Origin: a virus
Taxonomy: Duplodnaviria > Heunggongvirae > Uroviricota > Caudoviricetes
Direction: 5' to 3' (one strand)
Virus record (IMG/VR): IMGVR_UViG_2740892369_000003
DNA length: 9,297 nucleotides
Position numbers and translations under genes: made by a program. Each line of letters begins with the position of its first letter. Within the stretch, counting starts at the first letter, position 1. Shown piece by piece: positions 5,868-7,530 of this stretch. Under the pieces are notes generated by a model. It made no database searches and was not told the origin of the DNA. It worked only from the letters and a program-made list of their open reading frames with translations.

Positions 5868-6230
5868 ATGGGTCAGGAAGAAAAATATGAGCTTAAAAAG
5901 CTCATTGGAGAAGACGCCATAGAAGAAATTGCAGCATTAACAACAGCTATAAAGAATATTAGGTATGCGCTAAATACGCTTATCTCCTCATGCGACAAAA
6001 ATAGCAGGGAATTTTTGATACTTGGCGCAGCTCTAGGAATAGTTGATGCGGCAACGCTTCACCTAATTACTCATGACGATATTCTTATTGAGCCGTATGA
6101 AACATTACTGCTTGTCAGGCAAAAAATGGCTGATGCCGCAGCAAATGGAGACCTTCAACTTTACATCGACTTAAGGAAAGTATTAAGGCGAATGGTCAAA
6201 ACTGAAGGAGATATCCCCCTGACAAAGTAA
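5868..6230 (+). CDS. Hypothetical protein (120 aa), coupled to N; first gene of the low-GC accessory island
   Basis: ORF track 5784..6230. I trim to the ATG at 5868, 2 nt after the N stop, with GGCGAGG upstream. Low GC relative to the core genes. No family recognised. Confidence 0.6.
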   Translation: MGQEEKYELKKLIGEDAIEEIAALTTAIKNIRYALNTLISSCDKNSREFLILGAALGIVDAATLHLITHDDILIEPYETLLLVRQKMADAAANGDLQLYIDLRKVLRRMVKTEGDIPLTK

Positions 6231-6260
6231 GGGGGTGAAGAGGCCATTTCAGGAATAAAA

Positions 6261-6755
6261 TTAATAATTTGTCAGCGGCGGTACATATACAGGCTTAGGG
6301 TCTGGCGCTCTATACATCCGGTATTCATTCTTACAGCGAGGACATGAATGCACAAAGAACCCATTAGATTTTATAGTAACCGTGCTTGGTTGAAGTATCG
6401 ATATTTTATGTTCGCCGAAGCAATGTGCACAAAGGTTATGCTGCTGAATAGAAGGATCGGAATGACTCTTAGGTCGATACACGACAGAACCACCTTCAGT
6501 TGTATGAAGTTCATAATTCTCAGCTTGCACAACAAACATCTTGATTTTTCTATTTTCATCTCGAAGCTTCATTGCGATCTCCTTCTCGGCCTGATAAAGG
6601 CCAGAGAGCTCCGCATTAAGCATCTGTAAGTCAGTTATTCTTTGGTGTAGATCACCAATAGCTTTAGCGATAACAGCATCGTCTCTGGTTTCTTTTATTG
6701 TCTTCAGCAGATCATAAGCCTGTTTCGCGGCAGTTATACCAGATAACACATCCAT
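6261..6755 (-). CDS. Coiled-coil / zinc-ribbon protein (164 aa), transcribed against the PL operon
   Basis: ORF track 6261..6755 (-). AAGAGAG lies about 8 nt upstream. The N-terminal half looks helical. The C-terminus has a CxxC-x25-CxxC arrangement (CAHC...CPRC). AT-rich. No confident family assignment. Confidence 0.65.
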   Translation of the reverse strand: MDVLSGITAAKQAYDLLKTIKETRDDAVIAKAIGDLHQRITDLQMLNAELSGLYQAEKEIAMKLRDENRKIKMFVVQAENYELHTTEGGSVVYRPKSHSDPSIQQHNLCAHCFGEHKISILQPSTVTIKSNGFFVHSCPRCKNEYRMYRAPDPKPVYVPPLTNY

Positions 6756-6955
6756 ATAAATTACTCTCTTACTGTAGGGGTAAGAGGATTTTACTATTTT
6801 TCTCGCTGTAGGGGTACACGAGAACCACCGAGCCTGATGTGGTTAAAAGACAGGCACAATCTTTACTACCGCAAGCCACGCAGTGAAATGGGTGTGACTT
6901 GTGTTGGTCGCCAGAAAATGAAATTAGACAGCAAACCACTTATTTGAGGTGAGAT

Positions 6956-7426
6956 ATGACAAAATCATGGAGCGTACCTTTTCCTGAATCAGAAACTGAA
7001 CATGATGGAATGCCTGTTTTCTGGAGATTCCAGGCGACAGTTGAAGAAGATGGAATCAAAATATTCGCACTTCAATATATAGCTTTTCATCAGACAGAGC
7101 ATTATGCATGGTTGGTTCCTGCGCATTGGATTGTTAATTTTAAACCAGCACCAAATCAGTGGTTACAGGAATGGAAACAAAAGAGAAATAGATATGCAAT
7201 TAAGAAAGTAGCAAAAAATGCAGAAAGATCTTTTGCATTCCCAACGAAGAAACTTGCTATTGAAAGTTTATTGCGCCGGAAGAAATACCATTTAATGAGA
7301 ATAAAACAAGATTTGGCTGTTGTATCAACTCTTGTTGATGGGATGAAAAATATTGATACATCAACACCAGATATTGAATATAACTTTGGACACAACCAAG
7401 AAACAGAAAATTGGGTATTTTATTAG
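6956..7426 (+). CDS. Hypothetical protein (156 aa, Trp-rich, low GC), divergent from the zinc-ribbon gene
   Basis: ORF track 6956..7426. GAGGTGAG lies 3 nt upstream of the ATG. Strongly AT-rich. No family recognised. Confidence 0.65.
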   Translation: MTKSWSVPFPESETEHDGMPVFWRFQATVEEDGIKIFALQYIAFHQTEHYAWLVPAHWIVNFKPAPNQWLQEWKQKRNRYAIKKVAKNAERSFAFPTKKLAIESLLRRKKYHLMRIKQDLAVVSTLVDGMKNIDTSTPDIEYNFGHNQETENWVFY

Positions 7427-7530
7427 TACGAATAAGCACTGTGTATTCATTCCAACGAGTGAATACACGGAGCAATGTCGCTCGTAACTAAACAGGAGCC
7501 GACTTGTTCTGATTATTGGAAATCTTCTTT

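Follow-up and report, generated by a model that had tools for sequence, protein, structure and literature searches.

A candidate defence gene of the Rip1 family behind a sieB-type promoter in the early-left region of a Stx1a prophage

The 9,297-nucleotide stretch recorded in IMG/VR as IMGVR_UViG_2740892369_000003 (hereafter, the window) is the lambdoid immunity and early region of a Shiga toxin 1a (Stx1a) prophage, read in the direction of the pL promoter. Phage Stx1a_10051 and the Stx1a-converting prophage of Escherichia coli O26:H11 (in strain 11368 and many more) are both 100% identical to its positions 5500-7950. This article deals with three accessory open reading frames (ORF1, ORF2 and ORF3) located between the antiterminator gene N and cIII, and above all with ORF2, known as hkaP in phage HK620, which sequence and fold comparisons identify as a divergent member of the Rip1 family belonging to a third, hkaP-type clade. 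A preliminary description, made from the sequence, had presented the interval 5868-7440 as a single low-GC island of novel genes without any recognised family, and as a candidate defence or anti-defence locus.

Gene content and mosaic structure of the region

The three ORFs have the coordinates and strands given in that description (Table 1), and the RefSeq annotation of E. coli O26:H11 strain 11368 is identical. Their homologues show evident protein-level conservation, and the ribosome-binding sites attributed to them are visible by eye as Shine-Dalgarno sequences: GAGG for ORF1, AAGAGAG for ORF2 and GAGGTGA for ORF3. The flanking order (N, then cIII, kil and erf) is also borne out, with the addition of a gene of the P22 gene 17 family that had been missed. 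RefSeq labels this gene 'superinfection exclusion protein', and the curated P22 record states that it 'allows growth on phage Fels2 lysogen'. N itself is 97.8% identical to N of HK620. As had been pointed out, the same slot holds ral and sieB in lambda and P22, the order in the P22 record being 24 (N)-sieB-ral-orf78-orf87-17-c3-kil. The block 7427-7568, which includes the terminator preceding gene 17, is conserved with HK620 and HK446, and the HK620 record places tL2A in that block.

Table 1. Coordinates of the genes, regulatory signals and RNA elements of the window
Feature	Position	Strand	Remarks
Replicative helicase gene	1013-2389	-	
O-like replication gene	2386-3207	-	
cII, cro		-	
cI	4115-4822	+	
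Small AT-rich ORF	4863-5159	+	phrog_18389
N antiterminator	5593-5865	+	PF25694 N_peptide, E=1.1e-15; phrog_271; left edge of the region, first gene of the pL operon
ORF1 (HK620 hkaQ)	5868-6230	+	120 amino acids
ORF2 (HK620 hkaP)	6261-6755	-	164 amino acids; antisense to the pL operon
ORF2 ATG	6755	-	
Shine-Dalgarno sequence of ORF2, AAGAGAG	6770-6764	-	
Inferred RNA start, A	6781	-	Alignment to curated P22 features
-10 box, TAAAAT	6793-6788	-	Alignment to curated P22 features
-35-like box, TGTACC	6818-6813	-	Alignment to curated P22 features
sas-like cis-antisense RNA	~6751-6872	+	Ends inferred from P22; complementary to the start codon, leader and promoter of ORF2
sas hairpin A	6765-6787	+	
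sas hairpin B	6802-6822	+	
sas stem S1	6823-6828/6839-6844	+	
sas pseudoknot stem S2	6832-6836/6851-6855	+	Interleaved with S1, giving an H-type pseudoknot
ORF3 module	6857-7435		Insertion relative to HK620 and HK446; blastn junction map
ORF3	6956-7426	+	156 amino acids
Intrinsic terminator, hairpin and T-run (HK620 tL2A)	7529-7550	+	Between ORF3 and gene 17; terminator scan
Gene of the P22 gene 17 family (gp17)	7570-7881	+	PF17420, E=3.4e-53; between ORF3 and cIII
cIII	7957-8091		
kil	8076-8228		
erf	8485-9090		

The interval 5868-7440 is indeed more AT-rich than the remainder of the window (GC content of 0.394 vs 0.461; two-proportion z ~4.9, by our own arithmetic from the counts). It is the lowest of all 1573-bp stretches, just 0.26% of which are equally low. 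The effect is uneven and comes mainly from ORF3, the GC content of which is 0.350 (0.255 at third codon positions); ORF1 and ORF2 (0.399 and 0.414) lie close to cI and kil (0.434 and 0.405). The gene of lowest GC content in the whole window, the small ORF that follows cI (0.293), is located outside the island.

The region is best regarded as a mosaic made up of three units that function separately, and not as one system. According to blastn comparisons, positions 5305-6856, which include pL, nutL, N, ORF1, ORF2 and 100 bp upstream of ORF2, correspond to a module of HK620 (97% identity), and the sequence from 6895 onward corresponds to H-19B (99.9% identity), where ORF3 is present between N and gene 17 but has no annotation. 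The matches to HK620 and HK446 run to 6856 and restart at 7427/7436. As these positions are contiguous in both phages, ORF3 is a ~580-bp insertion relative to them. HK620, HK630 and HK629 carry ORF1 and ORF2 without ORF3, and H-19B and PA28 carry ORF3 without ORF1 or ORF2. Of the 5,426 complete genomes of E. coli surveyed, 96 contain ORF1, 66 ORF2 and 598 ORF3 (with up to four copies), and 56, mainly O26:H11, have the entire block at 100% identity. Furthermore, distant homologues of each ORF never have the other two nearby. The presumed island thus consists of at least two separately inherited modules, and its genes, far from travelling together, occur independently.

The three ORFs are adjacent, all of them are more AT-rich than their flanks, and they are found together in the 56 genomes mentioned above, as would be expected of one cooperating defence or anti-defence system acquired as a unit. 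A three-gene system is nevertheless rejected, because the distribution of the genes is independent and their distant homologues lack the partners. In addition, ORF2 has a promoter of its own and runs on the other strand, and the characterised Rip1 works as a single protein. Such a system is therefore considered very improbable, and the impression of a single novel system conveyed by the AT-rich block has to be corrected.

ORF2 and the Rip1 family

Rip1 of phage HK446 and of Mu-like prophages of Pseudomonas aeruginosa is reportedly the subject of Patel et al. 2026, Nature 651:1060. Three papers (PMC13434031, PMC12908700, PMC13601566) present Rip1 as a single prophage-encoded protein, harmless alone, that acts in abortive defence. 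In these accounts, 12 copies assemble around the 11-mer ring of the small terminase, or the protein acts via the portal in Pseudomonas phages, and its N-terminal amphipathic region forms a pore that leads to the premature lysis of the infected cell. The same sources describe Rip1 homologues as widespread in proteobacterial prophages.

Scans of all three ORFs with Pfam, NCBIfam and PADLOC gave nothing above noise, and in particular no DNA-binding family for ORF2. The statement that the genes belong to no recognised family holds for these resources; each ORF does fall in a PHROG family (7374 for ORF1, 1244 for ORF2 and 1636 for ORF3), all of them without an assigned function. Comparison with known structures was more informative for ORF2. 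Indeed, a profile of 24 ORF2 homologues searched against the PDB (hmmsearch) retrieved 9oox, 'ring interacting pore 1 (Rip1)', with E=1.3e-17, all the other entries having E>1. This entry corresponds to Rip1 of Escherichia phage HK446 bound to the small terminase of T6. The ORF2 sequence alone also matches it (phmmer, E=1.8e-10), residues 3-146 aligning with residues 14-156, and both proteins are 164 amino acids long. The AlphaFold2 (AF2) model of ORF2 (predicted local distance difference test, pLDDT, 81.6) displays helices at residues 2-21 and 25-77, followed by beta strands. Its only significant Foldseek matches in the PDB are 9oox_M and 9oox_L (E=7.9e-7, template modelling scores 0.60/0.75).

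ORF2 therefore appears, like the Rip1 of HK446 and Pseudomonas, as a protein combining an N-terminal helical hairpin with a C-terminal four-cysteine beta/zinc-ribbon domain. Its N-terminal helices are amphipathic (maximum hydrophobic moment of 0.51), and no transmembrane segment was found in it (Kyte-Doolittle maximum over 19 residues of 0.60). Reciprocal tblastn searches connect the proteins in both directions: HK446 Rip1 retrieves HK620 hkaP and this Stx1a phage, and ORF2 retrieves HK446 and the homologues of the Pseudomonas phages JBD30, D3112 and DMS3. The three Rip1 clades, which are ~27-31% identical to one another, have in common the motifs NYE-H, VYR-K, CxxC, SILQ-P and CxxC. Residues Y81, V92, Y93, K96, C109, C112, I120-L121-Q122-P123, C138 and C141 are invariant across the hkaP clade, HK446 Rip1 and JBD30, and the core residues of ORF2 are also invariant among the 24 proteins of the hkaP clade, which is confined to Enterobacterales. 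The C-terminal tail beyond the second CxxC is clade-specific, and that of ORF2 is proline-rich.

The genomic context is also shared. ORF2 is a stand-alone prophage gene oriented against the surrounding operon, as are its relatives in HK446, JBD30, Serratia, Yersinia and Pantoea, which have varying neighbours. In HK446, N is immediately followed by rip1, whose orientation opposes that of the pL operon; the depositors of this sequence noted its similarity to HK620p16, which is hkaP. The hkaP-clade genes of Serratia and Pantoea are single antisense inserts between N and cIII, and the homologue of JBD30 has an antisense orientation and adjoins a DUF1804 gene resembling small terminases, in agreement with the published description. 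Furthermore, over the 104 bp that precede the ATG, ORF2 and HK446 rip1 have 99% identity, though the proteins themselves are only ~27% identical. Besides its proline-rich tail, ORF2 differs from its HK446 counterpart by the presence, in this phage, of the extra gene hkaQ between N and ORF2.

Two observations concern the location of hkaP-type genes. According to the HK620 record, a pL terminator, tL1, is located on the strand opposite to hkaP, within the limits of this coding region; the terminator scan did not flag the equivalent positions of the window, 6642-6665 (calculated from 3643-3666 of the HK620 locus). In two Yersinia prophages, an hkaP-type Rip1 gene (5001-5465) with a complete promoter cassette is found antisense between Q and the holin gene, and therefore the cassette seems to move as a unit between operons. 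This location is the moron site of the late operon that carries stx in Stx phages.

ORF2 could be kin to Rip1 and yet have another role, for example sensing a different phage product, acting by an unrelated, SieB-like route or being a zinc-ribbon regulator. Indeed, it is only 25-28% identical to the characterised Rip1 proteins, its tail is specific to its clade and the family already recognises different rings (portal or small terminase) depending on the host. However, the two proteins align over their full length and are of equal size, the core motifs and the four cysteines are invariant, the slot and the upstream cassette are those of the structurally characterised Rip1 of HK446, and no DNA-binding family was matched in the above scans. 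Another role is thus judged quite unlikely, and the assignment of ORF2 as a divergent Rip1 is preferred.

The cargo is consequently less novel than had been announced. ORF1 and ORF2 were already known as hkaQ and hkaP of HK620, the latter with the label 'putative superinfection exclusion protein', and the Rip1 family was described in 2026. What is new is the recognition of ORF2 as a divergent member of this family, and that of the cassette it shares with other genes. The sole paper found on hkaP and hkaQ used their intergenic regions as reporter insertion sites, without functional data. Recognition of the third clade brings the Stx1a prophage of enterohaemorrhagic E. coli O26:H11 and HK620, a classic and easily manipulated model phage, within the range of the Rip1 family. 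The presence of Rip1 in O26:H11 may bear on superinfecting phages or on phage therapy against these pathogens.

The sieB-type promoter cassette and its antisense RNA

The element of ~100 bp located upstream of ORF2 is 85-86% identical to lambda and P22 (blastn), and the curated P22 record marks in it a 'sieB promoter' and a 'sieB RNA start site'. About 90 bp of this element are kept in the copies of Serratia, Pantoea and Yersinia, where a TAAA(A/C)T box is framed by two unvarying ACCCCTACAG repeats, 34 bp apart. Neither these repeats nor the -10 box varies between the copies of E. coli, Salmonella, Serratia, Pantoea and Yersinia.

A scan of viral contigs for this pattern found at least 120 loci. 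Among the matches listed, 103 had a scorable ORF behind the cassette, namely SieB in 78 cases (PF14163, E=4e-29), a Rip1-type protein of either clade in 22 and other proteins in 3; as an exact match to the pattern was required, these proportions are indicative only. Three unrelated small proteins of 105, 168 and 83 amino acids, one of them with predicted membrane segments, were observed behind this promoter/sas cassette, where SieB or Rip1 would otherwise stand. None of the three has a Pfam match, and they are candidate new exclusion effectors. The ACCCCTACAG-N34-ACCCCTACAG element offers a simple search handle for further exclusion genes.

SieB, Esc and sas make up a superinfection-exclusion module of P22 and lambda, as set out in PMC10461980 and PMC12197685, which cite Susskind 1974 and Ranade and Poteete 1993. 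ORF2 resembles this module by its slot, orientation, promoter, RNA start, leader and structured antisense RNA. Furthermore, Rip1 and SieB are both functions expressed from the prophage, and both abort the growth of a superinfecting phage when its lytic cycle is partly completed. However, the proteins are unrelated, and ORF2 has no conserved internal start from which a product resembling Esc could arise. The possibility that ORF2 itself is a SieB was ruled out, since it has no match to PF14163, the profile that readily detects the SieB cargo of the same cassette, and no membrane-spanning N-terminal segments. ORF2 can also be compared with the lambdoid morons (a promoter, a gene and a terminator inserted between operon genes). 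Like them, it is AT-rich, has its own promoter, lies on the opposite strand, is variably present and, taken with its relatives, is found in different slots (N-cIII and Q-holin). Unlike theirs, its promoter region is common to unrelated cargo and doubles as an antisense RNA gene, the conserved unit being the regulatory cassette and not the cargo.

The sas RNA of P22, 127 nt long, has been sequenced, and infected cells yield 1,321 reads per million of it (PMC13397905). It is the exact complement of the sieB promoter/leader element. The plus strand of the window at 6761-6872 is 86.6% identical to nt 20-127 of this RNA (E=3e-35), and only a single mismatch falls within the final 73 nt. In P22, sas alters the translation of sieB by switching it to an internal start (Esc), which enables the phage to escape its own exclusion; this function has been shown for P22 sieB/esc alone (PMC12197685, PMC7067206). 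A search of Rfam for the antisense RNA returned no family.

The predicted layout of the sas-like RNA comprises two CUGUAGGGGU hairpins and an H-type pseudoknot. A MAFFT alignment was one column off in S1 for some sequences and was hence replaced by a realignment of 50 loci on a covariance model built for this element, which matches the window at 6760-6860 with 106.9 bits. Covariation was counted over 19 pairs of hairpin B, S1 and S2, hairpin A being left out because its register varies. The fraction of paired cells amounts to 96.1%, vs 26-38% in slid controls. Compensatory double changes affect 6 pairs, including three in S1 and two in S2, and none of 500 shuffles reaches the observed values. 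In hairpin B, the one-sided changes are all to G.U, which is compatible only with the plus (sas) strand. Compensatory changes and strand-specific G.U pairs therefore indicate selection on a plus-strand RNA. The case for an RNA structure rests on this covariation, because the stability of the sas-like RNA (z=-0.76) is unremarkable and that of the ORF2 leader (z=-1.53) is not significant.

The upstream element might alternatively be a promoter and a recombination linker spread by recent exchange, with no functional antisense RNA acting on Rip1. The copies of E. coli and Salmonella are 85-99% identical, which could reflect recent common ancestry, and mosaic junctions are found at both edges of the sas/promoter element, i.e. 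at 6753-6755 (the ATG of ORF2) and at 6856/6857. Indeed, the cargo switch between HK446 and the window falls exactly at the start codon, and the left junction of the ORF3 module lies immediately after the last pair of the S2 pseudoknot stem; past 6856, the sequence is CAATCTTTACTACCGC in P22 and the window, or TAC(T/G)AATAAACACTG in HK446 and HK620. The unremarkable fold energy and the demonstration of sas function for the P22 genes alone point in the same direction. However, a mere linker does not account for the compensatory changes of S1 and S2 or for the strand-specific G.U wobbles. Moreover, sas is made abundantly during P22 infection, and the RNA of the window is, by its position, fully complementary to the ribosome-binding site and start codon of ORF2. 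A linker devoid of any RNA function is regarded as possible but rather unlikely, and a sas-like RNA acting on ORF2 is favoured.

Its mode of action may differ from that of P22 sas. No internal methionine is conserved in the ORF2 family (M45 varies in the 24-protein alignment), and therefore the sas/Esc mechanism of P22 cannot be transferred unchanged. The switch to an internal start probably does not apply to ORF2, for which a simple on/off effect on the translation of Rip1 is possible.

Proposed functioning of the module and the other accessory genes

The favoured explanation, to which we assign a probability of about 0.7, is that of a three-unit mosaic in which ORF2 would be an abortive Rip1 protein under a sieB-type promoter and sas-like control, ORF1 and ORF3 being separate from it. 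In a lysogen, where pL is repressed, ORF2 would be transcribed from its sieB-type promoter and a soluble, inert Rip1 would accumulate. Upon late expression of a superinfecting phage, the protein would assemble around the ring of its small terminase or portal, and the N-terminal helices would go on to build a pore in the membrane, so that the cell would die before progeny mature. When pL is active, the sas-like RNA, lying over the ribosome-binding site and start codon of ORF2, would switch off any new synthesis of Rip1. As pL may fire either on induction of the prophage itself or from an incoming relative that has this cassette as well, the shut-off would provide both self-protection and an escape route for relatives. 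ORF1 and ORF3 would be expressed only during lytic growth, and neither would be needed for Rip1. By analogy with the characterised Rip1, ORF2 is thus a defence gene candidate. The earlier proposal of a defence or anti-defence locus is partly supported by this full-length Rip1 homologue in the sieB slot and by the homologue of the sas antisense RNA, but it does not apply to the region as one locus.

Several points weigh against this explanation. Given the low identity of ORF2 to the characterised Rip1 proteins, its trigger could differ from theirs. A generic sigma-70 consensus scan found no promoter upstream of ORF2, the promoter and RNA start having been transferred from P22 by alignment. The fold energy of the sas-like RNA is, as indicated above, unremarkable, covariation counts can be inflated by sequence relatedness, and the internal start on which P22 sas acts has no conserved equivalent in ORF2.

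A more general proposal can be put forward tentatively, with the odds somewhat against it. The sieB slot would be a hotspot of cassette exchange, and the promoter/sas element would act as a generic safety catch for interchangeable abortive effectors (SieB, two Rip1 clades and at least three small proteins), including an RNA-based anti-defence that incoming relatives would exert in trans. Transcribed from pL, the RNA would silence any killer gene placed behind it while the phage itself grows lytically. If true, this would link SieB exclusion, 50 years old and mechanistically unsolved, with the Rip1 pore, and Rip1 would thereby receive its first described layer of regulation or counter-defence. 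That SieB, Rip1 alleles and small proteins share a cassette suggests a common control of self-immunity, a testable idea about how prophages avoid their own abortive gene.

ORF1 is 100% identical to HK620 hkaQ and acidic (predicted isoelectric point, pI, of 5.2). It is probably translationally coupled to N, because its start codon lies 2 nt past the N stop codon. In a set of 5.8 billion proteins, its relatives amount to only 5 clusters, and wherever a source is named it is Escherichia; the only PDB match (phmmer) is at chance level (E=0.09). A relative with 64% identity also begins 2 nt after an N gene and is followed by a different, GhoS-like antisense gene. A longer reading of ORF1 (5784-6230, plus strand, 148 amino acids), which starts inside N in another frame and is named 'antitermination N domain protein' by NCBI, looks like an annotation artefact, because the 64%-identical homologue aligns from residue 1 of the 120-amino-acid form and starts right after N. 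We read ORF1 as an appendage that goes with N genes of this type.

A role of hkaQ as partner or antidote of Rip1 was discarded, since the Rip1 homologues of HK446, Serratia, Pantoea and Yersinia occur without hkaQ. The small ORFs found at the position of hkaQ in these four loci are unrelated to it, arginine-rich and N-like. In three loci with relatives of ORF1, the position of rip1 is held by an antisense gene encoding a 94-amino-acid protein with a weak Pfam match to GhoS, a type V antitoxin; the ACCCCTACAG cassette pattern was not found in these loci.

ORF3 encodes a basic protein (predicted pI of 9.1) with 7 tryptophans. Its close relatives form 33 clusters in Enterobacterales, and an exhaustive profile search gathered 85 representatives of a wider family of 130-155 amino acids, all of which fall in PHROGs without an assigned function, and no annotated, Pfam or PDB relative was found. 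The AF2 model obtained from a 19-sequence alignment is poor (pLDDT 52.6), and Foldseek of viral structures gave nothing at E<0.2. Thus, the profile and structure checks that had been suggested for the proteins led from ORF2 to Rip1 and gave no usable match for ORF3. The genes of the ORF3 family are always sense-oriented among early-left accessory genes, either between N and cIII or just before xis/int. Distant members of the family were often observed 1-2 genes upstream of the excisionase/integrase genes, at the far end of the early-left operon (L010, with the gene at 5001-5477, L016 and L017).

Like Ral, orf78 and orf87 of P22, ORF3 lies between the gene of the sieB slot and gene 17, in sense orientation, and belongs to the genes read early from pL. 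Unlike them, it constitutes a separate family, with no detectable similarity to any of the three and more than twice the size of Ral. Its identification as Ral was rejected, as blastp against P22 Ral gave nothing at E<=1 and ORF3 has no Pfam or PHROG annotation. From its position alone, an anti-defence or host-takeover role of ORF3 is plausible. In a wider form, which is compatible with the explanation favoured for ORF2, ORF3 and possibly ORF1 would be early counter-defence or host-takeover genes. Both are indeed sense-oriented in the N-antiterminated pL operon, and ORF3 replaces ral, orf78 and orf87 upstream of gene 17, the P22 record assigning restriction alleviation to ral and growth on a Fels-2 lysogen to gene 17. 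Furthermore, this basic, tryptophan-rich protein is widespread and present in multiple copies in E. coli, always among accessory early genes. However, it resembles neither Ral, orf78 and orf87 nor known anti-defence proteins, its structure model is too poor for use, and position is weak evidence since this arm also carries recombination and regulatory genes. On balance, such a role for ORF3 and ORF1 is seen as unlikely.

Outside the island, the small AT-rich ORF located directly 3' of cI, i.e. at the position of rexAB, was also noticed. The N-terminal helix of its product is strongly hydrophobic, and the gene is followed by a GC-rich hairpin resembling a bidirectional terminator (5164-5183). 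A Serratia prophage encodes a 47%-identical protein at the same post-repressor position, where HK620 has the unrelated hkaS. This ORF is likely a membrane moron expressed in the lysogen and, as a defence candidate, is on a par with the island.

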